This document shows positions 17,192 through 42,911 of a DNA stretch of 64,000 bases, piece by piece (the first letter of the stretch is position 1; the number at the start of each line of letters is the position of its first letter). The notes beneath the pieces were generated by a model. The model ran no database searches. It was given only the letters and a program-made list of their open reading frames with translations, and had not been told where the DNA came from. Source of the stretch: Clostridia bacterium (GTDB lineage: Bacteria; Bacillota; Clostridia; Oscillospirales; CAG-272); the NCBI GenBank assembly GCA_017396225.1, contig JAFQMP010000073.1:1897-65896 (forward strand), given 5' to 3'. Made by a program: the position numbers and the translations under genes.

Positions 17192-17206
17192 GTTGTCCTC
17201 CTTTGA

Positions 17207-18082: not shown

Positions 18083-18083
18083 A

Positions 18084-19019: not shown

Positions 19020-19059
19020 GTTGTTTCTCCTTACAGCGCTAAATTATAATGTAACCGAA

Positions 19060-22000: not shown

Positions 22001-22476
22001 TTGGGCAAGGACAGGAAGCGCGCCTCGGCAAAGGGAATCTTGCCGTCAATCATCAGGACTCGCTCAATCGACGCGGATTTCGCGTCGTCGGGCCAGTACT
22101 CAATGACGATACTGTACTTTGCGTCACTGGGAATGTTAACCTCCCAAGTAACAACACCGTTGTTCGGTGTAAACAGGCCAACCGTGCCGTCCTCAAGCAG
22201 CACCTTTCTGACGTCTTCCGCCGTCAGGCCTTTGCCAAGCTCCACGTAATCAACACCCTTGATAGGGGGAAGATCCACAGTGGCTCCGGGAACCCCTGCG
22301 TGCTCAGCCTTGTATTCCTCATAGGTCTGGGCATTCAGCTGTTCCTTGAACTGTTGCAGGTCATCGTCGTCGCCGCCGCCCGGTTCGTTCGATGCGCTGA
22401 CAGTCATCGCACCGCCGAACAGGAAGCATACAGCCAAGACGAAAGCCAAGAGTCTTTGGAGCATCTTCTTTTTCAT
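19060..22476 (-). CDS. giant extracellular solute-binding protein with N-terminal CBM-like modules
   Basis: 1138 aa from MKKKMLQRLLAFVLAVCFLFGG (ATG 22476, RBS GAGGAGGA). The N-terminal half has two beta-sandwich-like segments (KYSIVIEYWPDD..., GMYNIAARYRQN...). The C-terminal half resembles type-1 sugar SBPs (VWLAYGRDQAQVIRNLINNDFTPKYDVPVNLKLV...). Confidence 0.7.
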   Translation of the reverse strand: MKKKMLQRLLAFVLAVCFLFGGAMTVSASNEPGGGDDDDLQQFKEQLNAQTYEEYKAEHAGVPGATVDLPPIKGVDYVELGKGLTAEDVRKVLLEDGTVGLFTPNNGVVTWEVNIPSDAKYSIVIEYWPDDAKSASIERVLMIDGKIPFAEARFLSLPKVWKNTYVIAEVYATKDASVTEIYEAAVKAGFADADVRAKNGEAYVALTFPEVWTQSQAAFVNEYTVRFFTSDIDNNELRPSMDQAPELRSYELRDADGFYAESFEFAFTAGTHKISLEAVNEPITIKEIRLVKHISLPTYEQYLAQYKGMPSGQDKIVIQAEYPGATSSQTIYPVEDRTDAATMPADTGCTMLNTLGGEKWQTAGQWVRYSFAVSTSGMYNIAARYRQNVLDGMYTCRTLRIESSDGKYDGSVPFVEATRLRFNYNSAWQSTLFNSGNGVDYQFYFEKDVVYTITMEVALGSTGDIVRRVDAALTAINADYLAIMKLTGADPDELRDYGFARVMPDVMIDMKIQSQELYDIAKLLADITGEKSSNVATLEKVAWLLDRMGSNEDEIAKYLDQLKSYIGSLGTWLSDAKTQPLQLDYIIIQPTGGDAPQAKAGFFKALIHELSSFIMSFFRNYDRMGATAEETSGENTIDVWLAYGRDQAQVIRNLINNDFTPKYDVPVNLKLVAGGTLLPSVLAGMGPDVYIGIGEDDVINYAIRGALLPIENMPNFEQTVKENFNDAAMAVLQIEDAEGVKHCYGLPETQNFTMMFVRKDILADLDIKIPKTWDDVLAAIPTLQANNMQIGMHTDYKVFLYQMGGTLFADGGMRINLDSNVGLESFDKMCSFFTMYSFPYKYDFANRFRTGEMPIGFASYNGTYNQLTVFATEIKGLWAFYPMPGIDTGEVDENGDPIINNCSVATTSAIVMLNGCGAAGGEEGMMEKSRAWQFMVWHSGKDCQVVYSNEMVAIIGPSAKHATANIQALSEMPWTSEELKQLNAQFEKLASIPNYPGSYIIGRYTSFAFLAAYNDNADPTEELQSYITIINKEITRKREEFGLETLEIGQTLKSKRLDQLLAAWNADVEKVGSGGNVDKQAEYIMSDIIADIKRGDYDLVEEHTLTNVRDRLLALDTDAYKGTVQAINNAIAALNVKS

Positions 22477-23247
22477 ATTTTCCTCCTCTTTACTGCACTT
22501 GCAGTTTGGTATGTTTGCGCGGTTTGACGCGCGGCGCATGCCCTGCGCACGCGTGAGAACAAATAAAGAACGGCGAGCCGTTCTCGTTTGCCGTCAAGCG
22601 AGGCAGAGCCTGCAAGCCCACTGGGGGCTTTGATGTATGGCAATATTTTAGCACAGAAAGCCGACAAAAGTCAAGTGAAAATTTCTCGCGCATTATGCGT
22701 ATATGCGCGAGGCAAGCAGGTCAGGGCACCCGCGCAAGCACCCCTGTGAAAAGCCCCTTTTATGCAAAATTTCGTCAATTTTTCGCAAAAGCGATTTTAA
22801 TTGTTAAATAAAATTTACCTAAACCCGCAGTGAGAGGAGATGCAGCCGTCCCCAACTGGTCTTTTTTCGTCATCTTTTCCCAAAACAACTTTTTTGTAGC
22901 CCACAAAAGTAAATTTAATTTAACGTGTAACCGCAAAAGGATTTTTGAGAGCCTCCCTCGCCGCCTTTTTTCAGGGGAGCCGTTTTTTGTGCAGGTTAGA
23001 CAAAAAGGAAAGCCCATTTTCTACGCCGCGTACCGCGCGCACAAAGCGGCACTTTTCCGCCTTTTTACAAAAAATTCACATTTGCATCTCCTTTTTACGT
23101 GCTCAGGCGCTTGCGCGCACATAAATGCGTGGCTTTCCGCTTTTGCGTTTTTTTGCCGCCGCCAAACATAAGCACCGAAATTCGGGAAACACTAACACCA
23201 AGCAAGCGCAGTTTCGCTGCGCAAAATTATGCGATAAGGCGGTTTTT

Positions 23248-27034: not shown

Positions 27035-28957
27035 ATGAAGGATATTTTGCGTGCAGGTCTTGCAGTACCTGCCCTTACTCCCGCTGACGTCACGAGCAAC
27101 GCCGAGAAAATTGCGGCAAGCATCAAATCTGCCGCAGGAGAGGGTGCGACCGTGCTCCTTTTCCCCGAGCTCTCTCTCTCCGGCTACACCTGCGGCGAGC
27201 TTTTCCACAGTGACCTGCTCCTTTCCCGCATAGAGGACGCACTCTGCCTGCTGGCAGGTGCCACACCTGACGGTATGCTGGTGGCTGTCGGTGCACCGCT
27301 TTCCATCGGTGGGCAGATTTACAACACGGCAGTGCTGCTTTCGGGTGGCAAAATTGTCGGTGCTGTGCCCAAGCTGCTCCCCTATGGCGGTATGCGCGAT
27401 GAGCACCGCTATTTCAACCCCGGTACCGCGTTGGACGACACTGTACTCCACACCCTCGGCTGCTTCACCTTTCCCGTATCCACCTCTCTATTGCTGCGCG
27501 CCGCTGATGGCGTAACGCTTGGCGTGGTACTCGGCGAGGACGCCACCTTCCCCCTGCCCGCCGCCTCTCTGCTCACACTTGGCGGTGCAGAGATTATTCT
27601 GAACCTTTCGGCTGCCCCCGCTTTGGTGGGTGGCTACGAAAAACGCCGCCGCTCACTGCTTGCACAGGCAAGTGCCACTCACACTGCCTATCTTTACGCC
27701 GCTGCAGGCGTGGGAGAATCGGTAGCAGACCAACTCTACTGCGGTCAAGGCCTGATTGCACTTGGTGGCAAGGCTATTCTCGAAAACGGCAAAATTGCCG
27801 ACGGTGATTATCTCCTGACTGCCGACCTTGACCTTGGCAAAATCCGCTACGACCGCCGTCACGACCGTCGCTTTGCAAATACCGCAAGCTGCTATGGTAC
27901 AGGCGACCTTGAGGAAGCCTGCCTTCCCTGTGCACTTGCCACCTCAGACGGCGCAAAGCTTTCGATATCCAGACTGCCCTTCGTTCCCGACAACAAGCCC
28001 ACGCGCGATGCCCATTGCCTTGAAATTTTTGAAATTCAGGCAACCGCGCTTGCCAGACGCCTCTCGGTGGTTGGCGGCAAGCTGACAATCGGTATTTCGG
28101 GCGGTCTTGACTCAACCCTTGCCCTCCTTGTCGCCGTTGCGGCGATGGACAAGCTGAACTTGCCCCACACCAACATCACAGCCGTCACAATGCCCTGCTT
28201 TGGCACCTCGGACGACACGCTGAAAAATGCCCTTGAATTAATGGAGCGCCTCGGTGTCACCGCTATGACCATTCCGATTGGTGATGCAGTGCTGCAGCAT
28301 TTCAAGGATATCGGTCACGACAAGGACGACTACTCGGTCACCTACGAAAACAGCCAGGCACGCGAGCGCACCCAGGTGCTCATGGACCTCACCAACAAGC
28401 AGGGCGGCATTGTACTGGGCACGGGCGACCTTTCCGAAATGGCGCTCGGCTGGTGCACCTATAACGGCGACCACATGAGCATGTACGGCGTAAACTGCGA
28501 CGTACCAAAAACCCTCATTCGCTTTATCATCGAGGCTGTCATTGACAAAGCACTGCTCCCCGATGCGGCAGACGTTCTCTACCGCATTATTGATACGCCT
28601 ATCAGCCCCGAGCTTTTGCCCCCCGATGCGGTCGGCAAAATTGCGCAAAAAACCGAGGATATTGTCGGTCCTTACGCCCTGCACGATTTCTTCCTTTATT
28701 ATACCGTTCGCTACGGTTATCGCCCCGCCAAGCTCTATGCGCTGGCATCAATTGCCTTTACAGGCATTTTTGACGGTAACACCATCAAGAAATGGCTGAC
28801 AGTCTTTACCAAACGTTTCTTTACACAGCAATTCAAGCGCAACTGCGTGCCCGACGGCATCAAGGTTGGCGCGGTGGCACTCTCGCCCCGCGGCGACTAC
28901 ACCATGCCCTCTGATGCAGCTGCGGCAGACTGGCTCGCTGAAATTGCCGAGCTTTAA
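27035..28957 (+). CDS. nadE: glutamine-dependent NAD+ synthetase
   Basis: 640 aa from MKDILRAG (RBS GGAGG). N-terminal CN-hydrolase domain (LLFPELSLSGYTCGELF). C-terminal PP-loop (IGISGGLDSTLALLV). Confidence 0.9.
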   Translation: MKDILRAGLAVPALTPADVTSNAEKIAASIKSAAGEGATVLLFPELSLSGYTCGELFHSDLLLSRIEDALCLLAGATPDGMLVAVGAPLSIGGQIYNTAVLLSGGKIVGAVPKLLPYGGMRDEHRYFNPGTALDDTVLHTLGCFTFPVSTSLLLRAADGVTLGVVLGEDATFPLPAASLLTLGGAEIILNLSAAPALVGGYEKRRRSLLAQASATHTAYLYAAAGVGESVADQLYCGQGLIALGGKAILENGKIADGDYLLTADLDLGKIRYDRRHDRRFANTASCYGTGDLEEACLPCALATSDGAKLSISRLPFVPDNKPTRDAHCLEIFEIQATALARRLSVVGGKLTIGISGGLDSTLALLVAVAAMDKLNLPHTNITAVTMPCFGTSDDTLKNALELMERLGVTAMTIPIGDAVLQHFKDIGHDKDDYSVTYENSQARERTQVLMDLTNKQGGIVLGTGDLSEMALGWCTYNGDHMSMYGVNCDVPKTLIRFIIEAVIDKALLPDAADVLYRIIDTPISPELLPPDAVGKIAQKTEDIVGPYALHDFFLYYTVRYGYRPAKLYALASIAFTGIFDGNTIKKWLTVFTKRFFTQQFKRNCVPDGIKVGAVALSPRGDYTMPSDAAAADWLAEIAEL

Positions 28958-28968
28958 GAAAAACAAAA

Positions 28969-29001
28969 AGAACACCGCCCCGTGGGGCGGTGTTCTTTTT
29001 G
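28969..29001. terminator. bidirectional rho-independent terminator
   Basis: GAACACCGCCCC/GGGGCGGTGTTC stem with flanking A- and T-runs, between convergent nadE and the giant gene. Confidence 0.85.
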
Positions 29002-29005
29002 TTAT

Positions 29006-29040
29006 CCCCCCTGCCGCAGCGCGCTGCGGCAGGGGGTTTT
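29006..29040 (+). terminator. second hairpin terminator
   Basis: CCCCTGCCGCAGC/GCTGCGGCAGGGG stem followed by TTTT. Confidence 0.6.
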
Positions 29041-29063
29041 GCTTGCGTATTGCAAGCAAATTA

Positions 29064-32000
29064 TCAGGAAATCGGCTTCTTGCCGGGGTCCAGGTACTGA
29101 CGCAGCGAATCCTGCAGCACGGAAGCGTATCTGCTGTAGCTATTATTCTTCATAATAGATACATAGCAGTAGTTACGGCCATTCTTGACAATCGGTACAT
29201 CGTTGACATCATTGATGGCGTATTCCGCAACACTGCGCATCGTAGTGCTGACAGCTGCAGAGGTATGCGTTGCCCAGTAGTAGGTTTCCGTACCATCAGC
29301 ATCGGTCACCTTTGCATATGCAATACCGGTGTAGCTCTTGGTATGGTTTGCAGCCTTGATATTGGTAATCGAAGCACGGAAGACGATAGAGCCGTCGGCA
29401 TTGGTAATCAAGCCGTTCTTTGCCTCAACCATCACATACTTCGCACCTACATTATCAAGCTCTTCCTTGAAATCAATGCCATTCTGCCAAGTGCCGAGCG
29501 AATCGGTCTTGAAGATAAGCGTACCGTAGGATACGGTGCCGTATTCTTTCAATGCAGCGATAGCCTCTGCCGTCATGCTGGCAGTGAAGGTGATACCCTC
29601 AGCGCCCAGCACGGGACGAATAACAGGCGTGCCAACCATGACAGGTGCACAGCCGGACGGGTCATAGAAGCCAAAGCAGATGTAGAAGGGCTCGCCGTTG
29701 TAGTCACCGAGCGAGGACTTATCCATCGGGACAGAATTGGAAGGCGTTACAGTATCTCTCAGGAAGTAAGGCTTCTTCTCCTGCGTGTAAAGCTTAAAGT
29801 CACCCTCGAAGCGGAAGTCCGCATTCGCATTCATCTTCATGAAGGACTGGTTACTGCCGGTACGGTAATCAAAGAACTCACCACCACTCACAAGCAGAGA
29901 GGAAACGCCCTTGCCCGCAGAGTAAATGATAGCGTCATCAGTGGTTCGACCGGTTCTGTCCTCAAAGGTAAAGATACCACCCTTGATAACCATAGGCTTG
30001 GAGTTCTGGCCCAGGTCGAACATATTGGGAGCAGTGGAGGTAAAGACACCGCCCTCAATCACCACATTGGTACGTGTACCTCTGGTACCGCTACCGTGAA
30101 CTGTGAAGTAGAAGGTACGTGCGCCCTCAGAACGGAAGTTGCCGCCCTTGATGATGAAGCTGTATTCCTCAACCTCACACATGATGTTAAACATCGTGGA
30201 TCTGTCAAGCGCCTCAAAGTTACCACCCTCAATGATGACATTACTGTGGTAAATCTCAAGGCCACCGGAGATTGCACCGCTATGCGACGTGACGTAGTAG
30301 AACATATTCGCAACATCGTGGGAGGTGTAAATGCCGTCCTTAATCAGAAGCTGCGCACGGAAGGCATTGGTAATCTGGAACATACGGCAATATACATCGA
30401 CACGAATATCCCCTGCATCTGCAGGTGCAAAGGTGATAGTACCACCCTCGAGAACCATTGCACCGGTTGCTGCGCTGCTCGCATCAAGCACCATATCAAG
30501 ATACGAGATATCCAACGTACCGCCGGTGAAGTTATTGTGGATATAGAAGCCGTAAACGGTATCGGAGGTCTTGGCGGACAGGTCACGGAAGGTCGGGTCC
30601 TGCAGGTCGTAACCCGCAAATTCGGGATTGCCAATCAGCGGGTTCTTGCCAATCTTAATGGCACCGGGCTGGTTGACGTAGAGCCACTTATTGCCACCCA
30701 TAAAGTAGCCACCCAGAATATTCAACTGCATCTTACCGCCCGTTGCGGTGTTCATGCAAAGAATCGAGTAGGTGTACTCGTTACCAACAAAGGTACCGCC
30801 GTAGATATTGAAGATTGCATCATCATAAGCGATGTTAATCATCTTCGCATCGCCCGGCACCTTCGTGGCTATCAGGTTAGAAATAAACTCACCGCCGTAA
30901 ATGTTAAGCGTGCCGCCTGCATAACGGTAGAAGATAATACGTGCTGCAATAAAGGTGCCGCCGTGGATATCCATATCGGTCGTACCCAGAATACTGCCGC
31001 TGTTATCGGTACGGAAGATAACGCCGTACGGCACGCGGTTTGCATTGGCGATTTCGGTATCCAGTGTAATGGAAAACTCGCCGCCGTAAATCTTCATATC
31101 GGTGGGACCCTGGAAGTTCCACATATTACGGCCGTACAAATCCTTCATCGTAAAGGTGCCTGCGCGAACAATAACCTGCGTGGGACCTGCACCGGGATTT
31201 TCCTTAGCAACGTCACCGGAGCGAGAAAGGTTGAAGCCGTGGTCGGTGAAGGAATCAAGCCCCTCAAACGTGGGTGAAACGGTCGCCTTAACCATTTTAG
31301 GCGTGCCATCGGGATTGAAGACGGGCAAACCGGTATCGGGGTTAATTTCCTGCACCATAGTCTCATGGCTACCGAAAATCACCTCAATGACACGGTTACT
31401 CCAGAACCAGTAATAGCCACCGGTAACGTAGCCGCCATAGAATTCAAACACTGCGCCGTCACCGCCGTTGGAGGTGAAAACCGAGTGACCGTACTTGCCG
31501 TCAAAGTGACCGCCGTAGATAATTAACTTGGAGTCATAGCCACGGACGTTCAGCAGGTATGCGTTATCGCGGACGGCATGGTTAACAGGGTCAAATACGA
31601 AGGGGTTCTCCTCACTTGCAGCGTCCTTTGCCGCGTAGTAGGAATTGGTAAACTCAGCCTCGGTCATCTTCTCCTCAACCATGTTACTGAGGAAGGTGCC
31701 GCCATAAATGGTGGTGGTAACCTTGCCGTAATAATCCATCAGGATACGTGCTGCCTCAAAGTAGCCGCCGTAGATGGTCAAGGTAGATGCTTTTTTAGTG
31801 TCTGAGCCAACACTTGCATAGTAGAAGAGAGGGCCATGGTAATTTTCACGGTCAACCTTTTCCTTAACGAAGTGACCGCTGTAAATCACGGTAGTGGTAG
31901 CAACGCCTGCGACCTGCAGCGCGTTGCCGCCCTTGCCTACGGTAACCTTAAGACAATCACATACACCGTGCTCGTCGGGTGTGCAGGCATCACCCTCCTT

Positions 32001-35000
32001 ACCAAAGGTAATCGAGGAGCCGCTTGCGCTGCTGACATAAATCATATCACCGCCCGTTACGTTGAAGGTACCACCGGTAATGGTCAGGTCTGCGCCACCG
32101 TATACATAGAAGAGCGTATCGGCTGCAAAGTTCCAATCACCGCCATGAATTCTGGCATCGGTTGCGCCATAGAAGGACAGACCATAGGTGCTGGGAATAC
32201 AGATAGGATTGTCATCCAAATCCAGAACAGGCTCGCCGTCAAGCATCAACGGCAGGTCTACAAAGGTAATGTAAGGAATATAACGCTTCATCAAATTCTT
32301 GACATCAGTCATCGAATTGATGTTGATTATGTCGAGCGCCTGATACGCATCAAAGCGTGCATTGCCCTTCACGGTAATACGTGCGTTTTCAAGTATTTTT
32401 GTTACCATATTATCGGCAGCATAAGTCTTGAGGATAAACGCATAGTCTTCCACAACAAACTTAACGGTATCAGTCAGCTTGAAGTGCGTGGTGTTGGTAC
32501 CGTTGCCAAGGTACAGAAGCGTTGCCTTATCACCTGTTACAAGGTAGGTGCCGCCCGAAACACTCACACGGGAATCGGTCGTCACATAGAAGGCACTGCC
32601 GATCAGGTTGCAGTCAGAAACGGTCAATTGACCTTTCGCGGTATAGAAGATATACTTACTGGGTATGCTGGCGGTAAATTCGCCGCCCGATACGGTCATC
32701 ACAGCATCAACGTGGTTCAGGTAGAAGAAACCGCTTTCAAGCACATAGCCGTCCGTATCGGTAAAGGTGCCGCCTGTAATATTCAGGGTAGTTGCACCGT
32801 TGGTCATATACCAGGCGGAGCCACCGTTGAAGGTACCGCCGTTAATGGTCGTGACAGCACCTGCCTCGCCGCCGTTGGCAGCAATCATATAGCGTCCCTG
32901 CTTATTATCAAAGCTACCGCCATTAATGGTGAGCGTGGTGCTCGGGCCGCGGGGGGACATAAAGTGCTCGTTATTGTTGGCAGAGCTGCGTACAGTAACA
33001 GGGCCCTGCGGCTTGACAACAAAGTTGCTGACAAAGGTACCGTCGTTGATAATGGCTGCAGACTCGGAATAGTACAGAAGAAGCAGTCTGGTTGCCTCAA
33101 AGTAACCGCCGTTAATCGTCAGCGTAGCACCCGTGCTCAGGTCAAGCTCTGTTCTGCTGCTGGTATCATAAACGAAGAGTGCGTCCTTCTGATTGCCCGA
33201 AATATCGGGGGTCAGCTCTACAAAGCGACCGCCCGAGATAACAACCTCGGAGTTAGCAGCGCCGTAAGCATAAATCACAGCGCCAAGAACATTAACGGTA
33301 ATCTCGCTGCCCTCAGCAGGTGCAAAGTAAACCTTGCCTGCGCCAAGCAGGTGGATAAGGTCGCCGCCCAGTGCATTGAAGGTACCGCCTGTGATATTCA
33401 GCGTACCCTGGGTAACCTTGAAGAGGAAGGAGCCCTCACTGGTGAACTTGCCACCCGTGATATTGACAATTGCATCGGGGTGATTCACGTGAATCGGTAC
33501 CCAGGAGGTAACGCCAAGCTCATACTCCTCTGCAATCGCAGCAATAGCACCAATCAGACCCTCGATGTAGGACTGAATGGTATCAGCAGAAACGTCATAC
33601 GTGCCTGCCTGGTCAAAGGTCATCTCGGAAAGGCCGTAGACAGTCAGTTTCTTGAGAGATACCGCATAACCGGTGTCAATCGGCAGCTTACCAAGTGCGC
33701 CAACCGTCAGGGTGATGCCGTCAATGGCAACATTGGTGGTATCCACACCGCCGGCAACTGCGATAAGGTCTGCGCCCGCACCTGCAAGATAATAGGTGCC
33801 GTCCTGCAGCGTGACAGCTGCAGTACTCTGCATGTCAATCAGCTTGCCATCTACGGTGATGCTGTAATTACCGCCCTTAAGGAGCACCGTACCTGCAACA
33901 ACACGTACGCCGTAGCCCTCACTAAGTGCAAGGGAGAGGTTCTCCAGATGCAGAATAGCATCTGCGTGATTCAGGGTCATCTGCAGCCAGGGCAGCTCTA
34001 CACCCTCTGCAATCGTAATTGATGTAAAGAAGGTTTCAAGCAGCGCGCGCTGGTCTGCAAGAGAGGTGATGAGATAAGGGATATTTTCATAAATGGGATT
34101 TTGGGAATCGTCAAGCACAGGATTGCCTTCGGGGTCAAATTTTTGCACTATATTGGGACGTGCAATGACAAAGTTCTGTACGGGACCGTTGACGGTCAGG
34201 CTCATCGCCGAGGTATCAAAGTTCAGGTACATCGGCAACAGCGTGTATGCCTCCAAGGTAACGTGACCGCCGGTGACGGTAACACCCGTCTTGTCAAGCA
34301 CTGCGGGCAGCAGACCTGCGCCCTCGCCAATCACGTGGAAATCACCGCCGTTAATGGCAAGCGTGTTAACCGATGTGGCGTTGCCAAGCTCAAAGAGTAC
34401 GTTATCCTTGTGCGTAGCATTGAAGGTACCGCCGTTGATGGTGACAATTGCACCCTTGCTGCTCTCAATTCGCATGAAACGACCGTACTGCTTGAGGTTA
34501 ATAGTGGGACCGTAGGCTACATCTTCCTCAATCTTACCGATGTTCAGTTCAACAGCAGTGGCGTTAAGGTGCACAAACAGATTATAGCTGTCTCCCTTAC
34601 CTTGAGCACCCTGTGTGAAGGTGCCGCCGGTAATAGTAATCGTACCCTTGTTATTGACAAAAATAGCACGGCTGAAGTTGTTGAAGTTACCGCCCGAAAT
34701 ATTCAGGGTTGCACCAACCGACTCCAAGTCAATCAGAATATTGTTTGTCTGCACGTATCCGCTTGCTTCATCAAAGAATCTATTAAAGCTACCACCGGAA
34801 ATATTAACCGTAACCGTACCGTATGTACGGATATTACGGTAACCGCGGAATTCACCGCCCGAAACATTCAATGTACCGCTGTAAATATCAACAACAGACA
34901 CGCTGCGGCAGCCGATGAACAGACCGCCGGTGATGTCAACAGTCGCAGTGCCCTTCTGATAAAGGACATAGCAGTAGAGATCACTGGTATCAAATCTCGT

Positions 35001-36923
35001 GTTGCCAAAGGAGCCCGCAGAAACAGTCAGCGCCGCGCTCTCACCCACATTGGCAGCATTTGCGGTCAACTCAAAGACAACAGCGCCGTTACTTGAAAGG
35101 GCCTCAATCTCAATCTTGGGGTTATACGCAGCACCTGCTGCATTTTCCTGCACCACGACAGTGGCAGCACCGTCAATGATGATACCTCTCTGGTCCACAG
35201 GAACCAGAATGTAACCACCCGACATCGTGAAGGCACCTGCCTGCACACGCACGGCAACATTCGCACCCTTGTAGGTGCCGCCCGAGATGTTCAGAGCAGC
35301 ATCTGCGTGATTGACCACGAAATAGGTTGCAGTACCACTTTCGGAGAAGCGGGTAAAGGTACCGTTCGCAATATTCAGGGTTGCAGCGCCATCAAGCGTT
35401 GCAAAGGTGGTAATCGCGTAAGTGCCGTCAAGGACGTTGACAATACCACCGTTGACATCAACCACAGTCTGCATCGTGTAGCTGCCGCCCATGATATTCA
35501 ATGTACCACCCTCCATAAGAAGGAGCGCGTTCTCGCTTCGATAAGTGCCGCCGACTACGGTGACGGTACCTGCCATCACCTTGACAAGGTAATTATTGCC
35601 CGTAAAGTTGTAATCACAGCCAACGGTAACAACAGCCTCTGCGTGATTGACAACAATCGGAATCCAGCCGGAGATGTCTACCTGACCGAGCGGGAAACGG
35701 ACTTTATCAATGTTCAGCATCGCCTCGATAGCAGCCTTCGCAATGGCGTGGTTCTTCTCAATGCTGGACATATCGTAAACGCCGCCCGCGGTAATCTCGT
35801 AAGCACCCTCAAAGCCCGCGATAATCATGCCGATGTTCGTCCAGTCAAAAACACTGTCAAGCGACTCGTCGGGCGTGCTTGCACCGTTTTCAAGATATAC
35901 GGCGCCTTTGGTTGAGGTAACGGTGCCTATCAGTTTGGCAGCGTCACCCGCCAGTTTTGCAGTGCCGCCCACCAGGTGAACATCACCGCCGTTCCAGGTG
36001 ACGGCTGCAGGGTTTGCATTGGCAGTTGCAAAAACAGCTGCGTCCTGTGCAGTCACAGAGGCCCCCTCATTCATGGTAATGTTGGTTGCAGATCTGATAT
36101 CAAACACCGCACCTGCAGTTGCCCTGATGTCTGCGCCCTCATTCAGTGTAATCGACGAGGTGGTGCCCGACTTACCTAAGGTAAAGTAGAAGACACCGGC
36201 GCTGCCGCCGTTCACGGTTGCCGCGCCCACGGTAACATCAAGGTTACCCTTGGTCATATACACCACGTTGGCATCGGCAGAAATCGTACCGCCGCGCAGG
36301 TCCAGCGTACAGTCAACCGAACCGGTTGCACTGAACTCAAACGCGTATTTGGAGCCTGCGCCGAGTTCGGAGTTGCCACTCACAGTCACGTCGGCCTGCT
36401 TATAGGCATAGACCGCAGAGTTCGTCGTTGCACCCTCCAGCTTGGTATCCTTCAGCGTCAGGTCAATTCCCGAGTTGTGAAGCAGAATAAAATACTTTGC
36501 CGTCGTGGCAGAGGTGGTCTTCAGCGTCAGGTTTTCAAAAGTAACCTGACCGTTTTTGACACCCACGTACACGTTGTGCTTTGTCGACAGGGAGATTTTA
36601 TAGCTTAGGACACCGGCAAAGGTAATGGTCTTGCCCGTATCACCACCGGTAATGGTGTAGGCAAAGTCTTTATCCAGCGTCACGCCCTTTGCCTCGGTCA
36701 CGTCCTTGAGCACGACAATTTTATAATTGTCGGCTGTGACGCCCGCCAGGGCCTCGGTCAGTGTGGCATAATACCCTACGTGCGCACCCGTGACATCAAC
36801 GACCTGATAGTTATCAGCGTCCGTCGGTACGGGCACGTCACTTGCAGATGCCAGGAAGACCATCGTCATCAGCATGACGAGGACCAGCGCTGCAAAGAGT
36901 ACCAAACGCAGTTGTTTCTTCAT
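29064..36923 (-). CDS. giant secreted beta-helix-repeat protein (2619 aa), function unknown
   Basis: Start at MKKQLRLVLFAALVLVMLMTMVFLASASDVP (ATG 36923, RBS AAAGGAGAG). The body is built from dozens of ~20-25-aa units centred on GGxF/GGxY (INGGTFNAT, ISGGNFNNF, ITGGTFTQG, VSGGEFRGY, IYGGEFISN). Non-repetitive C-terminal ~190 aa. No LPXTG seen. Confidence 0.85.
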   Translation of the reverse strand: MKKQLRLVLFAALVLVMLMTMVFLASASDVPVPTDADNYQVVDVTGAHVGYYATLTEALAGVTADNYKIVVLKDVTEAKGVTLDKDFAYTITGGDTGKTITFAGVLSYKISLSTKHNVYVGVKNGQVTFENLTLKTTSATTAKYFILLHNSGIDLTLKDTKLEGATTNSAVYAYKQADVTVSGNSELGAGSKYAFEFSATGSVDCTLDLRGGTISADANVVYMTKGNLDVTVGAATVNGGSAGVFYFTLGKSGTTSSITLNEGADIRATAGAVFDIRSATNITMNEGASVTAQDAAVFATANANPAAVTWNGGDVHLVGGTAKLAGDAAKLIGTVTSTKGAVYLENGASTPDESLDSVFDWTNIGMIIAGFEGAYEITAGGVYDMSSIEKNHAIAKAAIEAMLNIDKVRFPLGQVDISGWIPIVVNHAEAVVTVGCDYNFTGNNYLVKVMAGTVTVVGGTYRSENALLLMEGGTLNIMGGSYTMQTVVDVNGGIVNVLDGTYAITTFATLDGAATLNIANGTFTRFSESGTATYFVVNHADAALNISGGTYKGANVAVRVQAGAFTMSGGYILVPVDQRGIIIDGAATVVVQENAAGAAYNPKIEIEALSSNGAVVFELTANAANVGESAALTVSAGSFGNTRFDTSDLYCYVLYQKGTATVDITGGLFIGCRSVSVVDIYSGTLNVSGGEFRGYRNIRTYGTVTVNISGGSFNRFFDEASGYVQTNNILIDLESVGATLNISGGNFNNFSRAIFVNNKGTITITGGTFTQGAQGKGDSYNLFVHLNATAVELNIGKIEEDVAYGPTINLKQYGRFMRIESSKGAIVTINGGTFNATHKDNVLFELGNATSVNTLAINGGDFHVIGEGAGLLPAVLDKTGVTVTGGHVTLEAYTLLPMYLNFDTSAMSLTVNGPVQNFVIARPNIVQKFDPEGNPVLDDSQNPIYENIPYLITSLADQRALLETFFTSITIAEGVELPWLQMTLNHADAILHLENLSLALSEGYGVRVVAGTVLLKGGNYSITVDGKLIDMQSTAAVTLQDGTYYLAGAGADLIAVAGGVDTTNVAIDGITLTVGALGKLPIDTGYAVSLKKLTVYGLSEMTFDQAGTYDVSADTIQSYIEGLIGAIAAIAEEYELGVTSWVPIHVNHPDAIVNITGGKFTSEGSFLFKVTQGTLNITGGTFNALGGDLIHLLGAGKVYFAPAEGSEITVNVLGAVIYAYGAANSEVVISGGRFVELTPDISGNQKDALFVYDTSSRTELDLSTGATLTINGGYFEATRLLLLYYSESAAIINDGTFVSNFVVKPQGPVTVRSSANNNEHFMSPRGPSTTLTINGGSFDNKQGRYMIAANGGEAGAVTTINGGTFNGGSAWYMTNGATTLNITGGTFTDTDGYVLESGFFYLNHVDAVMTVSGGEFTASIPSKYIFYTAKGQLTVSDCNLIGSAFYVTTDSRVSVSGGTYLVTGDKATLLYLGNGTNTTHFKLTDTVKFVVEDYAFILKTYAADNMVTKILENARITVKGNARFDAYQALDIININSMTDVKNLMKRYIPYITFVDLPLMLDGEPVLDLDDNPICIPSTYGLSFYGATDARIHGGDWNFAADTLFYVYGGADLTITGGTFNVTGGDMIYVSSASGSSITFGKEGDACTPDEHGVCDCLKVTVGKGGNALQVAGVATTTVIYSGHFVKEKVDRENYHGPLFYYASVGSDTKKASTLTIYGGYFEAARILMDYYGKVTTTIYGGTFLSNMVEEKMTEAEFTNSYYAAKDAASEENPFVFDPVNHAVRDNAYLLNVRGYDSKLIIYGGHFDGKYGHSVFTSNGGDGAVFEFYGGYVTGGYYWFWSNRVIEVIFGSHETMVQEINPDTGLPVFNPDGTPKMVKATVSPTFEGLDSFTDHGFNLSRSGDVAKENPGAGPTQVIVRAGTFTMKDLYGRNMWNFQGPTDMKIYGGEFSITLDTEIANANRVPYGVIFRTDNSGSILGTTDMDIHGGTFIAARIIFYRYAGGTLNIYGGEFISNLIATKVPGDAKMINIAYDDAIFNIYGGTFVGNEYTYSILCMNTATGGKMQLNILGGYFMGGNKWLYVNQPGAIKIGKNPLIGNPEFAGYDLQDPTFRDLSAKTSDTVYGFYIHNNFTGGTLDISYLDMVLDASSAATGAMVLEGGTITFAPADAGDIRVDVYCRMFQITNAFRAQLLIKDGIYTSHDVANMFYYVTSHSGAISGGLEIYHSNVIIEGGNFEALDRSTMFNIMCEVEEYSFIIKGGNFRSEGARTFYFTVHGSGTRGTRTNVVIEGGVFTSTAPNMFDLGQNSKPMVIKGGIFTFEDRTGRTTDDAIIYSAGKGVSSLLVSGGEFFDYRTGSNQSFMKMNANADFRFEGDFKLYTQEKKPYFLRDTVTPSNSVPMDKSSLGDYNGEPFYICFGFYDPSGCAPVMVGTPVIRPVLGAEGITFTASMTAEAIAALKEYGTVSYGTLIFKTDSLGTWQNGIDFKEELDNVGAKYVMVEAKNGLITNADGSIVFRASITNIKAANHTKSYTGIAYAKVTDADGTETYYWATHTSAAVSTTMRSVAEYAINDVNDVPIVKNGRNYCYVSIMKNNSYSRYASVLQDSLRQYLDPGKKPIS

Positions 36924-36968
36924 AGGAACACTCTCCTTTTCTTGTATTGCGACAATGTCGCGTGTGTA

Positions 36969-36986
36969 CGCGACCGCGCGGTCGCG
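36969..36986. promoter_or_regulatory. perfect 18-nt GC-rich palindrome CGCGACCGCGCGGTCGCG in the 5' UTR of the giant gene
   Basis: Verified self-complementary by hand. Lies 46-63 nt upstream of the ATG. An adjacent hairpin GCGAC-AAT-GTCGC sits at 36950-36962. Confidence 0.5.
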
Positions 36987-37002
36987 ACAAATATACAATC
37001 AT

Positions 37003-37031
37003 ATTATATATGATTTGCAAATTTCAGTCAA
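37003..37031 (-). promoter_or_regulatory. near-consensus sigma-A promoter of the giant gene
   Basis: Minus strand reads TTGACT (37026-37031), 17-nt spacer, TATAAT (37003-37008). Confidence 0.7.
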
Positions 37032-37142
37032 TGGCTTTTGTCTATTTTCGCGATTTTCACCAAAAAAAAGGCCCCTAAATCGTACAGTTTGCCGTGGCTT
37101 TTTGAGATTGAAAAAGTCTTTCCTGCAAAGCCTGCCAAAAGC

Positions 37143-37168
37143 AAAAAAAGAACCGCCGAAAGCGGTTC
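37143..37168 (-). terminator. rho-independent terminator of the CNNM/rnhA operon
   Basis: GAACCGC-TTTCG-GCGGTTC hairpin followed by a T-run on the minus strand, directly after the rnhA stop. Confidence 0.8.
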
Positions 37169-37171
37169 TTT

Positions 37172-37672
37172 TCAAAGAGTTATCTGACCGTCGTCATTGT
37201 CCCACGGCGGTGTATCCTCCGCCACAGGGTCAAGCATGGGAAAGCTGTCTGCAAACGCAGTAGCAAGCTTGTCACAGCGTTCATTATAGGGGTGTCCCGC
37301 GTGCCCGCGCACCCACTTAAAGGTAACCTTATGCTTTTTGAGAAGCCCCAGTAGCTGCTCCCAGAGGTCGACGTTCAGCGCAGGGCTTTTATCTGCCTTA
37401 CGCCAGCCACGTGCGCGCCAGTTCTCAGCCCAACCGTTGTTCACGGCCTCCACCACGTAGCGGGAGTCCGAGGTCAGGGTAACCTCACAGGGCTCACGGA
37501 GTGCGGCAAGCGCGGCAATCACACCCGACAGCTCCATACGGTTATTGGTGGTGTGCGGCTCTCCGCCCGACAGCTCCTTTTCATGCCCGCCATACACGAG
37601 AATGGCGCCCCAACCGCCGCGACCGGGATTGCCGCGACAGGCACCGTCGGTATACACCTCTACGTGCTTCAT
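37172..37672 (-). CDS. rnhA: ribonuclease HI
   Basis: 166 aa from MKHVEVYTDGACRGNPGRGGWGAIL...NNRMEL...VRGHAGHPYNERCD. The ATG overlaps the stop of the upstream regulator (ATGA). Confidence 0.9.
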   Translation of the reverse strand: MKHVEVYTDGACRGNPGRGGWGAILVYGGHEKELSGGEPHTTNNRMELSGVIAALAALREPCEVTLTSDSRYVVEAVNNGWAENWRARGWRKADKSPALNVDLWEQLLGLLKKHKVTFKWVRGHAGHPYNERCDKLATAFADSFPMLDPVAEDTPPWDNDDGQITL

Positions 37673-38046
37673 ACGTCCTCCCTCATCTTCGTGAGAAACG
37701 CCTGCAAGCAGGCAACCGTTTCCTCGCTCAAATCGTGCTCGATTTTGCAAGCATCTTCGAGCGCCACCTCGCGGGAAACACCAAGTGCCATCAGCACCTC
37801 GGAAACCAGGCAGTGCCTTTCGTACATACGGTTTGCCACGGCAAGTCCCGCCGCCGTGAGGGCAATGCCTCCCACCGGAGAAATGGCAACAAAGCCGTTC
37901 TCGGCAAGCTCGCGCAGCATGACGCTGACAGTAGGGCGAGAAAAGCCCAGTGCCTGAGAAAGGTCCACTGCACGCACCTTGTCCTTGGTTTTGGACAGCA
38001 TCAGAATCTGCTCAAGATAGTTTTCGCCCGATTCATGAATTGCCAC
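37669..38046 (-). CDS. DtxR/MntR-family metal-dependent transcriptional regulator
   Basis: 125 aa: ENYLEQILMLSKTKDKVRAVDLSQALGFSRPTVSVMLRELAENGFV plus a dimerisation helix region. Confidence 0.8.
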   Translation of the reverse strand: MAIHESGENYLEQILMLSKTKDKVRAVDLSQALGFSRPTVSVMLRELAENGFVAISPVGGIALTAAGLAVANRMYERHCLVSEVLMALGVSREVALEDACKIEHDLSEETVACLQAFLTKMREDV

Positions 38047-40921: not shown

Positions 40922-41491
40922 ATGAAACCAACCGGAACGGTCAGACGCTCCTCCGGCATCACCAGAAGACTTGATGAGCTGGGGCGCGTTACGGTACCGA
41001 AATCTATCAGACGAAGCCTGCGCATTCGCGATGGCGATGCACTCGAAATATTTACCGGGCATGACGGTGAGATTATTTTCAAAAAATACTCCCCGATCGG
41101 CGAGCTCACCAGCTTTGCCGAGGAATATGCCGAAACACTCTATAAAACCTGCGGTCTTTCTGTCCTCATCTGCGACCGCGACGGCGTGATTGCGGCGGCA
41201 GGCGTTTCCCCGCGCAAGGAATATCTTGACCGCTCTCTTACCGAGGAGCTTGAGACGCTAATGGAAAAGCGCAGCCTCTATATCCTGCGTGACGGTAGCG
41301 AAAAAGTGATTGCCGTGCAGGGCACAACCGCACACGTCAGCTGTGCAATGCCGATTCTTGCCGAAGGCGATATTGTGGGTGCCGTGGTATCGCTGACAGG
41401 TGAAAAGGCCGACAGGCCGCTTTCGGGTGATACCGAAAGCAAGCTGATTCAGACCGCAGCGGCATTCCTTGGAAAAAATCTCGAATCTTAA
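40922..41491 (+). CDS. spoVT: stage V sporulation protein T (AbrB-family regulator)
   Basis: 189 aa from MKPTGTVRR... (RBS AAGGAGAA). AbrB/SpoVT swapped-hairpin motif LGRVTVPKSIRRSLRIRDGDALEIF plus a GAF-like C-terminus. Confidence 0.85.
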   Translation: MKPTGTVRRSSGITRRLDELGRVTVPKSIRRSLRIRDGDALEIFTGHDGEIIFKKYSPIGELTSFAEEYAETLYKTCGLSVLICDRDGVIAAAGVSPRKEYLDRSLTEELETLMEKRSLYILRDGSEKVIAVQGTTAHVSCAMPILAEGDIVGAVVSLTGEKADRPLSGDTESKLIQTAAAFLGKNLES

Positions 41492-42903
41492 AGAAAAGCC
41501 GATTGGTCGTACTGCGACTCAATCGGCTTTTTTGTGTTTTTGCGGGACTTCAGCCACGCTGCAAATCTCAACGGCAATCGCGATTTCGAAGGCAGATTTC
41601 CCATTTCCGTCAACGCGCTTTCTATCGCGACAAAAAAATATACGGCAAGAAAAGCATAGGGAACCGGGCAAAATTCTCCGGGATTTACCAGGGACATGAG
41701 AAACAGTCCAAGATAACAGAGTGCAAAACCGAAGCTGCGGTCACGCCACGCAAGCAGCGACACGCGCATACGCATACAGGATTGCCAGCACCAGGCGAGA
41801 ATACCCACCGCACCGAGGCCGCCGACAATCTGCGCCACCGAGGAATGATACCAGTTAATCGTCCCCTCCTTACCGCTGTACAAATCGGCATTGCCACGAT
41901 AGCCCAGGCCCGAGCCAAAAACAGGATTTTGACGAAAATCCGCAAAGCCGCGCTCAAGCAGCGACCAGCGCGCCTCAGTAGGATCGAGAAAGCCCAACGC
42001 ATACAAATTTCTCGACACAAAAAAGATAAGATACCCCATCGTCATCAGAGAAAGCAAAAAGAAGGTTCGACTCCAAAGGCGTCTGAGATAATCCTTCTCG
42101 GTGCGCCAGCCCCAAAAACAACAGAGCAAAAATTCGATAGGCGTAAAAAGCTGTGCACCGCGCGAGCCCGAAAGCACCGCCGCCACCAGCATAATAAACG
42201 CCAAGCCGTAATGGTAGAGTCTGCGATTTTTCACTGCCAATGCGGCGGGCAACGCCATCATCAGCATCGTGCCGATGTTATTCCCCCACTGCGCACCTTG
42301 AAACATAGAAATACCGTTTTTCAGCAAAAGCGGCAAATTGTAAAAGAAAACAATCGCTGATGCGGTCAGCCCCCAGCGGAGCAAATCCTCCGCAAGCATA
42401 TCGCGTGCGCTCGCGTCGCGCACGGTATTTTTGAGTAACAAGTAGCAAATCACCAGCACGGGCCCAAGTCCCGCCATAAAGCCAAGTGCGGCGGGACGGA
42501 AATAATCCGTCGCAGAAATCATACCGATGCCACCAAGCACTGTGGCGAGCGCCACCGCAATCAGAGGGAACAGCGTAGGACCCGTGAACAGACGCGGCTT
42601 CAAGCGTATCACATGCCAGATGAGGGCGGCAATCGGTATCGGCATCAGCCAAACATAGCGGATAAATACCGAAAAGGAATCATAACAAAAAATAAAGAGC
42701 AGGCAGAGGAGTAAAAAGGGCAACGTAAGATATTTTGTGTCACGCAGCAAAACAAGCCCTGCCGAAATCAGGAGCAACATAGCAATAGCAAAGGGGGCAA
42801 TCCCTGCGGTTTTGCCCCCCGTGAGCACCGCAATCAAAAATACGGCAACACAAAGAAAATCGCGCGCGATTTCTATACCGTATTTTCTGATTACAGTTTT
42901 CAT
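41488..42903 (-). CDS. O-antigen ligase/polymerase-like (Wzy_C family) membrane protein
   Basis: 471 aa with at least 10 predicted TM segments and a large loop region. Last gene of the polysaccharide cluster. Confidence 0.6.
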   Translation of the reverse strand: MKTVIRKYGIEIARDFLCVAVFLIAVLTGGKTAGIAPFAIAMLLLISAGLVLLRDTKYLTLPFLLLCLLFIFCYDSFSVFIRYVWLMPIPIAALIWHVIRLKPRLFTGPTLFPLIAVALATVLGGIGMISATDYFRPAALGFMAGLGPVLVICYLLLKNTVRDASARDMLAEDLLRWGLTASAIVFFYNLPLLLKNGISMFQGAQWGNNIGTMLMMALPAALAVKNRRLYHYGLAFIMLVAAVLSGSRGAQLFTPIEFLLCCFWGWRTEKDYLRRLWSRTFFLLSLMTMGYLIFFVSRNLYALGFLDPTEARWSLLERGFADFRQNPVFGSGLGYRGNADLYSGKEGTINWYHSSVAQIVGGLGAVGILAWCWQSCMRMRVSLLAWRDRSFGFALCYLGLFLMSLVNPGEFCPVPYAFLAVYFFVAIESALTEMGNLPSKSRLPLRFAAWLKSRKNTKKPIESQYDQSAFL

Positions 42904-42911
42904 ATTAACGA

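Follow-up and report, generated by a model that had tools for sequence, protein, structure and literature searches.

A giant modular, predicted beta-solenoid protein with a conserved terminal beta-sandwich and a possible surface-fiber role in uncultured gut Clostridia

Gene and expression signals

The window, by which we mean the whole stretch of 64,000 nucleotides analyzed here, contains a single intact open reading frame of 2619 codons plus stop at 29064..36923 (-), between an RNase H gene upstream and a convergent nadE gene. The original prediction of one 2619-aa gene over this interval is borne out. We assigned the start to ATG 36923 because the alternative TTG at 36998, which would open a longer mechanical open reading frame and was rejected, precedes the likely transcription start and because every one of the homologs (14/14) opens with MKKQL. 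Two opposite-strand open reading frames, 28866..31277 (+) and 31836..34022 (+), wholly overlap this homolog-supported gene and were taken as by-products of its repetitive coding strand.

A sigma-70/SigA-type promoter (TTGACT-17 nt-TATAAT; 37003..37031, (-)) matches the consensus at 11 of 12 positions and is the best in the region, and its -35 and -10 hexamers hardly differ among the syntenic loci. An A-tract box, AAAATCGCGAAAAT (37044..37057, (-)), sits 12 nt upstream of the -35 hexamer and recurs, the same or nearly so, upstream of the ortholog in loci L001-L003, L006, L007, L009 and L010 and of the second paralog in L011; it may act in the manner of an UP element or as a site for a regulator. 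The transcript would open with a structured 5' leader (36924..36996, (-)), in which an outer stem UUGUA...UACAA encloses two hairpins and is followed by the Shine-Dalgarno sequence AAAGGAG. This strong ribosome-binding site (AAAGGAGAG, (-)) lies 8 nt before ATG 36923. The leader folds with a minimum free energy of -25.4 kcal/mol (z = -2.4), and a comparison of nine loci revealed both-sided, compensatory changes in 7 of 16 predicted pairs. Rfam returned no family at its threshold for the leader or the terminators, a result on which a c-di-GMP or other riboswitch in the leader was ruled out.

An intrinsic terminator with a 19-bp stem and a T-run follows the stop codon (28962..29003, (-)), a terminator-like hairpin closes the RNase H gene upstream (37145..37173, (-)), and nadE has its own convergent terminator (29007..29036, (+)). 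With its own promoter and terminators on both sides, the gene can therefore be read as a monocistronic unit, in line with the near-consensus promoter and flanking terminators first proposed. Its G+C content (0.51) and GC3 (0.59) fall within the values spanned by the window's remaining genes, as expected of a native gene. Codon bias is only average relative to the neighbors (Nc 44.2), and very high expression is thus not indicated. Metagenome records ENA ERZ28653841 and Logan SRR12529064 both contain the identical protein; the source is a ruminant-gut metagenome.

Protein architecture and predicted fold

Residues 1 to 27 (36843..36923, (-)) read as a Sec-type signal peptide, with MKKQLR, a hydrophobic core and A-S-A before S28. 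Alignment of 15 proteins shows no variation at M1, K2, K3, Q4 and L5 and very little at R6. Export, followed by cleavage after A-S-A according to the AXA rule, is probable, and the signal peptide supports the earlier view of a secreted protein. The mature chain is acidic (pI 4.78); the protein contains 15 Cys and has a mass of ∼272 kDa. Its N-x-S/T sequons are not enriched (25 versus 26 expected), and the idea of N-glycosylation was dropped on this count.

Behind the signal peptide lies a conserved module, residues 28 to 135 (YQVVD...YYATLTEALAGV...IVVLKDVTE...YTITGG; 36519..36842, (-)), with conservation of 0.64 to 0.68 compared to ∼0.45 in the region after it. An HMM of residues 30 to 135 matched 39 of 160 related proteins, in each case directly behind the signal peptide. 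Its sequence logic resembles that of caps found at the N termini of other beta-helix proteins, and the module may be such a cap.

The region from residue 136 to residue 2424 (29652..36518, (-)) is a predicted beta-solenoid of about 42 GG-x-F coils in at least five modules. The signature h-x-h-x-GG-x-[FYVILW] occurs 42 times versus 1.7 ± 1.3 (maximum 7) in 1000 shuffles, confirming the repeats noticed at first reading, and GG.F alone occurs 29 times versus 1.7 expected. The commonest spacing is 21 to 32 aa, the unit has the consensus G-(A/G)-T-L-(T/N)-I-x-G-G-T-F, and every part of the solenoid region is connected to the rest by internal similarity.

AlphaFold2 models cover residues 372 to 1200 and 2380 to 2619. 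The first tile (33324..35810, (-); model mb125e71d998b) was predicted with a pLDDT of 87.6 and a pTM of 0.80 and consists almost entirely of beta structure apart from three short helices; some of its strand runs cover a whole ∼19-aa coil, a pattern that fits a solenoid. A Foldseek search with this model returned only weak matches (best E of 0.1 in the PDB and 0.004 in BFVD; TM ≤0.41 in the PDB), almost wholly right-handed parallel beta-helix proteins, namely, adhesins, lyases and tailspikes, or phage fibers. The strand pattern and these weak matches suggest a beta-helix-like fold class, with handedness and straightness predicted at most, and they favor the beta-helical protein originally proposed.

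The three helices of this model, assigned by DSSP, would act as connectors between modules. They span residues 388 to 403 (tile residues 17 to 32; 35715..35762, (-)), ahead of WIPIVVNHAEA with N426; residues 955 to 963 (tile residues 584 to 592; 34035..34061, (-)), ahead of MTLNHADA with N985; and residues 1113 to 1128 (tile residues 742 to 757; 33540..33587, (-)), ahead of WVPIHVNHPDA with N1147. The motif NHx[DE]A occurs five times (residues 426, 538, 985, 1147 and 1403; 0.03 expected) and had been described as a recurring capping element. That role is partly upheld: in the model the copies at 426, 985 and 1147 stand ∼20 to 30 residues past a predicted connector helix, at the opening of a new solenoid module, whereas the copy at 538 is inside a module and the one at 1403, outside the modeled tile, has no junction-like sequence nearby. 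In the homologs, the Asn of the motif alone is conserved and the His is not.

The most conserved segment of the solenoid is its last one, residues 2300 to 2424 (29652..30026, (-)), with conservation of 0.62 to 0.64 and full occupancy. Its conserved polar residues, D2329, K2338, D2352, R2354, Q2359, N2365, K2377, E2382 and K2384, make it a candidate functional site. It leads into the C-terminal domain, residues 2425 to 2619 (29067..29651, (-); alignment A2), which ends in the basic tail ...LRQYLDPGKKPIS. AlphaFold2 predicted this domain as a beta-sandwich with three main helices and a core pLDDT of 85 to 94, and the distinct nonrepetitive, beta-rich C-terminal domain of the original prediction thus corresponds to the last ∼195 aa. 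A fold search with it recovered generic Ig, FnIII and CBM21-like sandwiches alone (query TM ≤0.33).

We searched for a means of attachment to the cell. LPXTG is absent from the whole protein by regular expression, the sole sortase-like match being one NPDTG in the middle of the protein, and the C terminus reads ...QYLDPGKKPIS in place of the LPXTG, hydrophobic segment and basic tail that together mark a sortase substrate. Pfam found no SLH, choline-binding or any other family, whether the protein was scanned whole or as ten tiles, and no CWB2, LysM, lipobox or C-terminal transmembrane segment was found, in agreement with the first reading, which saw no LPXTG, SLH or choline-binding anchor. The C-terminal domain has a near-neutral pI of 6.9 (4.8 to 9.1 in the homologs), whereas many wall-binding domains are clearly basic. 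Lacking any recognized anchor, the protein might just be released.

A family of related proteins and its divergence

Searches of the whole protein with Pfam and NCBIfam (both at E ≤1) gave nothing or noise alone, and a Pfam scan of ten tiles, relaxed to E ≤10, added nothing beyond subthreshold Cthe_2159 matches and other noise. Across 15 family members Pfam found no family common to them. One homolog matches Pectate_lyase_5, an "adhesive domain" family, with an E value of 1.9e-4; with this exception, PF13229 Beta_helix, PF12708 and the PL/GH28 families were matched neither in the window protein nor in its 14 homologs. No catalytic family appeared in the scans of the whole protein (Pfam and NCBIfam), the ten tiles or the 15 family members (Pfam). 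We take the Cthe_2159 and Pectate_lyase_5 matches as weak pointers to binding domains. Profile searches of PDB sequences returned pertactin alone, at an E of 0.83, for the full-length protein and nothing at E ≤10 for the C-terminal domain. Because neither the repeat nor the C-terminal domain matches a Pfam, NCBIfam or PDB sequence family, the repeat class can be called undescribed, and the original claim is sustained in this sense. A cluster look-up gave a name to none of 10 proteins, and a literature search yielded no specific account of giant beta-helix proteins from Oscillospiraceae. This is a large protein family missing from the databases searched, a new family yet a familiar kind of system.

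The size of the family became apparent with the C-terminal domain. Its profile, A2, scores the window protein at 353 bits and matches at least 1543 representative protein clusters (50% identity), whereas a word-indexed search with the C-terminal profile gave 5 fragments only. A search for homologs of this domain alone had been among the original suggestions, and the result is a widespread module that is not peculiar to the 2619-aa protein. The sandwich is nearly always preceded by GGxF-rich sequence, with a GGxF density in 160 related proteins of 11.3 per 1000 aa before it and 1.5 after it. Some relatives carry cargo after the sandwich, including SASA esterase, metallo-beta-lactamase, metallophosphatase plus LamG, and EEP domains. 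We propose a family of signal peptide, GG-x-F beta-solenoid and terminal beta-sandwich, in which the sandwich stands behind GGxF-rich sequence as found here.

Orthologs of the gene itself were present in 12 of 185,579 species genomes, all of uncultured Clostridia, and a scan of JGI metagenomes added one short locus. Wherever a locus includes enough flanking DNA, the gene directly follows RNase H, precedes convergent nadE, or both. The flanking genes are 64 to 93% identical compared to 27 to 48% for the orthologs of the 2619-aa protein, whose length at this same locus ranges from 832 to 3419 aa, so the length polymorphism that was to be looked for is present. One genome carries two short tandem versions of the gene. 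The frame stays open in all but one locus, which we count as selection on the open reading frame. In the protein alignment, conserved ends flank a variable middle, the C terminus is the most conserved part, and the invariant residues outside the termini are mostly Gly, with a few Phe.

Proposed role and comparison with known systems

Our preferred reading, to which we give a probability of roughly 0.55, is that the gene encodes a Sec-exported, nonenzymatic beta-solenoid of ∼272 kDa that serves as a modular, fast-evolving surface fiber, adhesin or display scaffold; its surface location, its binding function and the end that faces the cell are all inferred. The gene would be transcribed alone from the strong SigA-type promoter, through the structured leader. 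Outside the membrane, the mature chain would fold into an N-terminal cap (about residues 28 to 135) and five or more right-handed beta-solenoid modules joined by short helix-containing connectors. A coil would take ∼22 to 27 residues and carry one h-x-h-x-G-G-x-F element, presumably as its turn. The conserved last solenoid segment and the beta-sandwich (residues 2300 to 2619) would close the chain. The conserved ends probably do specific work, either attachment or ligand binding, while the central stalk would be a spacer whose length and surface change fast through module gain and loss. The likeliest product would be an extended appendage on the cell surface that binds polysaccharide, plant fiber, host material or other cells and, with its modules stacked end to end, would measure roughly 40 nm. 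In some relatives, this scaffold bears hydrolase domains past the sandwich.

A more tentative extension, which we consider possible though rather doubtful, is that signal peptide, solenoid and sandwich make up an undescribed and widespread surface-display scaffold of gut Clostridia, with the N-terminal end at the cell and the far end either a bare binding tip, as in the 2619-aa protein, or hydrolase cargo such as esterase, phosphoesterase or metallo-beta-lactamase domains. The copy between RNase H and nadE would then be the main variable surface antigen of the lineage, diversifying by module shuffling under phage or host pressure.

The best fold matches in the PDB, PL6 chondroitinase and alginate lyases, K1 capsule lyase and phage depolymerase tailspikes, would also suit a secreted lyase or glycosidase of the pectin-lyase fold, with the solenoid as substrate groove and the conserved C-terminal solenoid segment as active site. 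D2329, K2338, D2352, R2354, K2377, E2382 and K2384 cluster in this most conserved segment and could be catalytic, some relatives have SASA carbohydrate esterase domains, and the source is a ruminant gut metagenome. We still regard an enzyme as unlikely, since no PL, GH or CE family was found with Pfam or NCBIfam, tiles to E ≤10 included, the structural hits (E ≥0.1, TM ≤0.41) are weak and extend equally to nonenzymatic adhesins, and stalk length variation on a 2.3-kb scale, together with conservation mainly of Gly and a few aromatics, fits a scaffold better than a groove. The near-consensus promoter with its A-tract box, the leader with compensatory changes, the strong Shine-Dalgarno sequence and terminator, the low pI of the mature protein (4.78), the constant locus across all related genomes found and the fast, S-layer-like divergence could instead describe the major S-layer-like envelope array protein of the lineage, very abundant and self-assembling on the wall. 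This seems to us quite improbable given the merely average codon bias versus neighbors, the two short tandem versions in one genome and the lack of SLH, CWB2 or any other known S-layer anchor in Pfam; a rod-like solenoid of ∼272 kDa with 15 Cys is also unlike the known lattice-forming S-layer proteins.

Weak BFVD matches to phage fibers and tailspikes, and a prophage remnant with portal and terminase genes elsewhere in the window, raise the question of a prophage tailspike or fiber, or of a contact-dependent toxin-delivery filament. Either is very hard to credit. The prophage genes are >23 kb away, every related locus with enough flanking DNA has housekeeping neighbors (RNase H, CNNM and nadE), the base composition already given is that of the other window genes, and the C-terminal domain has no relative among 2.9 million viral contigs. 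Polymorphic toxins show the reverse of the conservation pattern seen here, in which the C terminus is the most conserved part, and the next feature is not a small immunity-like gene but a terminator and convergent nadE.

Giant surface proteins largely govern the attachment of gut anaerobes to plant fiber, mucus and each other and are common phage receptors. While no new biological principle is revealed, at least 1543 unannotated clusters now have a concrete definition, consisting of repeat signature, N-terminal cap, connectors, terminal domain and a rule for cargo position. This is enough for two new family models and for annotating many giant proteins now called "hypothetical" in Clostridia of the rumen and gut. 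The fixed locus, with 27 to 48% identity between conserved flanks, is also a convenient natural system for the study of repeat module turnover.

Among known systems, S-layer proteins share with the 2619-aa protein a dedicated strong promoter, a structured leader, a monocistronic gene, an acidic secreted product and rapid divergence; the solenoid rod, the average codon bias and the lack of an SLH or CWB2 anchor set it apart. Chlamydial Pmp repeats (PF02415/TIGR01376) are likewise short and Gly-Gly containing and thought to form a beta-helix. The likeness originally drawn to them did not survive, as GGA[ILV] is absent (0 copies versus 0.7 expected), FxxN is at chance (10 versus 8.4 ± 3.0 expected), and there is neither an autotransporter domain nor a match to the Pmp models (full-length Pfam scan at E ≤1, ten tiles at E ≤10; NCBIfam at E ≤1). 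The adhesin-like surface proteins of rumen and gut methanogens (Methanobrevibacter and Methanosphaera) are described as large, numerous and poorly annotated, with complex domain architecture and mention of beta-helices (PMC11532034). They share the gut setting but are archaeal and have different domains, and no relation to them in sequence emerged here.

Clostridia also provide the tapirins of Caldicellulosiruptor (PDB 4wa0 and 6n2b) and the Cthe_2159 family (PF14262) of Clostridium thermocellum, likewise secreted beta-helix proteins, which bind polysaccharide and do not cleave it. Tapirins are not known to have a classical wall anchor. They bind cellulose (bioRxiv 10.1101/359786). The window protein is about four times larger, multimodular and equipped with its own terminal beta-sandwich, and no sequence or profile match is significant: Cthe_2159 stayed below its cut-off of 25.8 bits on tiles 650-960 (15.0 bits, E = 0.016) and 1140-1480 (16.6 bits, E = 0.0049), with no match on the full-length protein. 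Tapirins are among the Foldseek matches, with an E of about 1 and TM ≤0.15 to 6n2b and 4wa0. No pilus gene, the tapirin context, was seen among the window genes scanned.

The Gram-negative beta-helix adhesins, that is, the autotransporter passengers pertactin, Ag43 and UpaB and the two-partner-secretion (TPS) filament EtpA, are likewise long secreted solenoids with coils of 20 to 25 aa. FHA and HMW1 are further two-partner-secretion beta-helix filaments. The window protein differs from them in its GG-x-F signature and beta-sandwich end, in lacking a beta-barrel translocator or TPS domain by Pfam, and in its neighbors, RNase H and nadE in place of a partner transporter. Its host is also of another kind, a presumably monoderm member of the spore-forming Clostridia type, going by SpoVT in the window and the MAG labels. 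The Foldseek matches include the four adhesins (2iou/1dab, 7koh/4kh3, 6bea and 8vbb), weakly, at E ≥0.1, and as in these proteins an adhesive or fiber role is plausible for the 2619-aa protein.

Repeat architecture and predicted fold

The giant gene (29064..36923, minus strand) is one uninterrupted ORF (2619 codons and a stop), and the original observation that its product is built of GG-x-F-type repeats is borne out. There are 42 copies of h-x-h-x-GG-x-[FYVILW] compared to 1.7 ± 1.3 (maximum 7) across 1000 shuffles, and GG.F by itself is found 29 times when 1.7 copies are expected. Repeats are most commonly spaced by 21 to 32 residues, with the unit consensus G-(A/G)-T-L-(T/N)-I-x-G-G-T-F. 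Tiled self-comparison linked regions from ~200 to 2370 with one another and showed larger internal repeats, for example pairing residues 306-498 with 1035-1213 and 1207-1375 with 1659-1843.

We ran AlphaFold2 on residues 372-1200, supplying 12 aligned family members, and obtained a confident model (mean pLDDT, 87.6; pTM, 0.80) that is beta nearly throughout. Some of its strand runs span ~19 residues, for example 1144-1162 (HVNHPDAIVNITGGKFTSE) and 1166-1184 (FKVTQGTLNITGGTFNALG), and can be read as whole coils. The model contains just three helices of at least 9 residues (388-403, 955-963, and 1113-1128), plus one four-residue turn, and the NHxDA motifs at 426, 985, and 1147 each lie 20 to 30 residues downstream of one of these helices. 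Judged from sequence, a fourth module junction would fall near residues 1530-1545 (SMTDVKNLMKRYIPYITF). The earlier proposal of NHxDA as a recurring capping element stands in part: NHx[DE]A is present in 5 copies versus 0.03 expected, but just three of the five mark module starts.

Foldseek searches of the PDB with this model gave no significant match (best E, 0.1; TM, ≤0.41). The matches obtained, all non-significant (E ≥ 0.1), are in nearly every case right-handed parallel beta-helices, including PL6 lyases, pertactin, Ag43, EtpA, UpaB, VacA p55, tapirins, the HK620 and CBA120 tailspikes, and a K1 capsule lyase. Against BFVD, phage fibres and tailspikes came up just as weakly. The strand pattern of the modeled tile fits the beta-helix first suggested; the matches are weak. 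From this model we conclude that the giant protein is probably a series of beta-solenoid modules chained by connectors that contain helices, and that it lacks a close structural relative; the solenoid outside 372-1200 is provisionally assigned the same fold through internal sequence similarity.

Conserved termini and the wider family

By sequence, residues 1-27 look like a Sec signal peptide, with K2, K3, and R6, a hydrophobic core, and A-S-A ahead of S28. They are followed by a conserved module at residues 28-135 (Y-x-V ... YY-x-TL-x-x-A ... I-x-V-L-x-D-V-T-E ... Y-T-I-T-G-G), whose logic we take to be like that of the caps found at the N-terminus in many beta-helix proteins. An alignment of 13 orthologues is best conserved at either end (0.64 to 0.68 at residues 1-100 and 0.62 to 0.77 at residues 2300-2619) and low in the middle (0.29 to 0.55), where insertions and deletions are numerous. 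Conserved charged residues concentrate at 2329-2384.

The last 195 residues are predicted to form a beta-sandwich with three main helices and a core pLDDT of 85 to 94, in keeping with the distinct beta-rich domain first proposed. No PDB sequence profile matches this sandwich, and fold searches returned generic Ig, FnIII, and CBM21-like matches and nothing else. The domain is a common module, however, and is not peculiar to this protein. With a profile built on the final 240 residues, an exhaustive search of 1.84 billion representative proteins gave 1543 hits at E ≤ 1e-3, 422 of them reaching E ≤ 1e-10.

We analyzed 160 related proteins, mostly best hits of this search. Most have a signal-peptide-like start, and 39 match an HMM of the N-terminal module immediately downstream of it. 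In 103 of the 160 the chain ends with the sandwich, and 49 carry more than 100 residues beyond it. GGxF density is 11.3 per 1000 residues before the sandwich versus 1.5 after, and the tails include a SASA carbohydrate esterase (P0061 and P0063), a metallo-beta-lactamase-fold domain (P0092 above the Pfam threshold; P0074 and P0075 just below), a metallophosphatase with LamG (P0054), and EEP (P0014), while most other sampled tails have no Pfam match. The solenoid and sandwich therefore make one unit that accepts appended enzymes.

A variable gene at a conserved locus

A word-indexed search of 5.8 billion proteins returned just 14 homologues of the giant protein (27 to 48% identity; 1549 to 3419 residues), none of them named and none with a Pfam domain except P0014 (EEP). 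A scan of 185,579 species, each represented by a single genome, identified 12 loci with orthologues (L001-L012), all in uncultured, metagenome-assembled genomes labeled Clostridia, Eubacteriales, Oscillospiraceae, or (one genome) Lachnospiraceae. For several of them the isolate name indicates a ruminant gut sample (sheep colon, roe deer caecum). The exact protein is present in two metagenome records, one being ENA ERZ28653841 (XIEF21), which we take to be a member of a ruminant gut metagenome series.

In all loci with adequate flank, the giant gene lies directly after RNase H and/or ahead of nadE, which is convergent to it, and a sugar ABC operon; the upstream flank is missing in L004 and the downstream flank in three loci, and L012 shows neither neighbor. 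Identity to the window copy is 82 to 91% for RNase H, 77 to 93% for the adjacent CNNM gene, 71 to 90% for the second CNNM gene (true orthologue hits), 64 to 71% for nadE, 82 to 89% for the ABC permease, and 27 to 45% for the giant gene. Length polymorphism is evident, from 832 and 923 residues in the L011 tandem copies through ~1549 and ~2000 to 3419. The homologue P0008 corresponds to window residues 1-570 fused to 1592-2619; the gene thus gains and loses entire modules. At L011 two short tandem paralogues (4770-7220 and 7847-10612), each preceded by a promoter-like region and leader, replace the single giant gene between RNase H and nadE. Every locus except L010 keeps an open frame, which argues for a functional gene; the L010 orthologue, the sole interrupted copy seen, is broken into ORFs of 937 (1716-4529) and 2055 residues (4592-10759) and may be frameshifted, a pseudogene, or misassembled.

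The mechanical ORF extends upstream as far as a TTG (36998). The top-scoring promoter-like site of the region, TTGACT-17-TATAAT (37031..37003, minus strand; 11/12 matches), would start transcription near 36996, downstream of this TTG, which was therefore rejected and the ATG at 36923 taken as the start. The ATG is preceded by AAAGGAGAG, and all 14 homologues begin with MKKQL. Terminator-like hairpins lie upstream, at the end of RNase H (37173..37145, minus strand), and after the stop codon (29003..28962, minus strand; 19-bp stem followed by a T-run), and nadE has its own terminator (29007..29036, plus strand). With its own promoter and flanking terminators, the gene is a monocistronic unit, as originally described. 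It looks native by composition (G+C, 0.51; GC3, 0.59; Nc, 44.2), all values being within those spanned by the remaining window genes.

Among syntenic loci the -35 and -10 hexamers are nearly identical and conserved together with a box, AAAATCGCGAAAAT (37044-37057, minus strand), 12 nucleotides upstream of the -35, which may act as an UP-like element or bind a regulator. The leader (36924-36996, minus strand) is predicted to fold as an outer stem UUGUA...UACAA around two hairpins (-25.4 kcal/mol; z = -2.4). The same architecture occurs at L001:5987-6070, L002:1501-1597, L003:2749-2845, L006:1890-1983, L007:2926-3025, L009:1550-1648, and L010:1620-1718, with varying hairpin sequences and compensatory changes at 7 of 16 predicted pairs. 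It has no match in Rfam and could stabilize the 5' end of the mRNA or act in regulation.

Antisense to the giant gene are ORFs of 803 (28866-31277, plus strand) and 728 residues (31836-34022, plus strand), with similar ORFs in related loci (e.g., L009 1769-10747, minus strand, 2992 residues); these are probably no genes but a side effect of a repetitive coding strand with few stops. A 125-residue DtxR-family (Fe_dep_repress) gene (37669-38046, minus strand) separates the CNNM pair from RNase H; since it overlaps the start of the mechanically listed RNase H ORF, RNase H probably begins at 37672. Some 4.5 kb upstream of the giant gene, on the same strand and beyond housekeeping genes and a divergent SpoVT, lie polysaccharide-synthesis genes (41488-46330, minus strand): Wzy_C ligase/polymerase-like, Wzz with tyrosine-kinase ATPase, and CapD-like Polysacc_synt_2. 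Two sugar ABC permease pairs (9174-22539, minus strand) come with unusually large secreted proteins, a 1229-residue DUF5696 protein, a 723-residue NHL/TPR/Yip1 protein, and a 1159-residue protein with a solute-binding domain and a signal-peptide-like MKKKMLQRLLA, the last found at the same position in related genomes with 66 to 75% identity. The left end of the window holds P22-like portal and large terminase subunit genes (2459-5606, minus strand; G+C, 0.57 to 0.58 versus ~0.52), which belong to a prophage, whole or remnant, and have no relation to the giant gene.

Possible roles and relation to known families

We favor, with a probability of about 0.55, an exported modular beta-solenoid fibre with conserved ends and a fast-varying stalk, serving as an adhesin, spacer, or display scaffold; the fibre originally proposed is a reasonable interpretation. 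The conserved ends would carry out specific work and the stalk would change rapidly. If its modules are coaxial, the solenoid would extend ~40 nm (~2200 residues; 22 to 27 residues and 0.48 nm per coil). Because the cargo enzymes of relatives sit on the C-terminal side, there are hints that the N-terminus is the cell-proximal end, although no anchor is evident.

An S-layer-like coat protein would suit the strong promoter and the conserved structured leader, yet no anchor is evident and codon bias is average, with no codon signature of extreme expression; we regard this role as improbable. A polysaccharide lyase or hydrolase is unlikely. A phage-derived or toxin-delivery filament we consider very improbable; no relatives were found in 2.9 million viral contigs.

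None of the known sequence families tested takes in the giant protein. Pfam and NCBIfam had nothing for the whole protein, in agreement with the lack of a recognizable catalytic or wall-anchoring domain noted originally, and LPXTG and SLH were absent as first noted, along with CWB2, dockerin, autotransporter, and TPS domains. Pfam searches of ten tiles at E ≤ 10 gave only sub-threshold matches to Cthe_2159, a carbohydrate-binding beta-helix family (15.0 and 16.6 bits versus a cut-off of 25.8), and one homologue matches Pectate_lyase_5 (E = 1.9e-4). The suggested resemblance to chlamydial Pmp repeats fails, with no copy of GGA[ILV] and FxxN at chance level. By sequence the giant protein represents a new family, though one familiar in kind, which merits new family models and would not surprise a specialist. 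With the beta-helix adhesins it probably has in common a fold class and a way of working.
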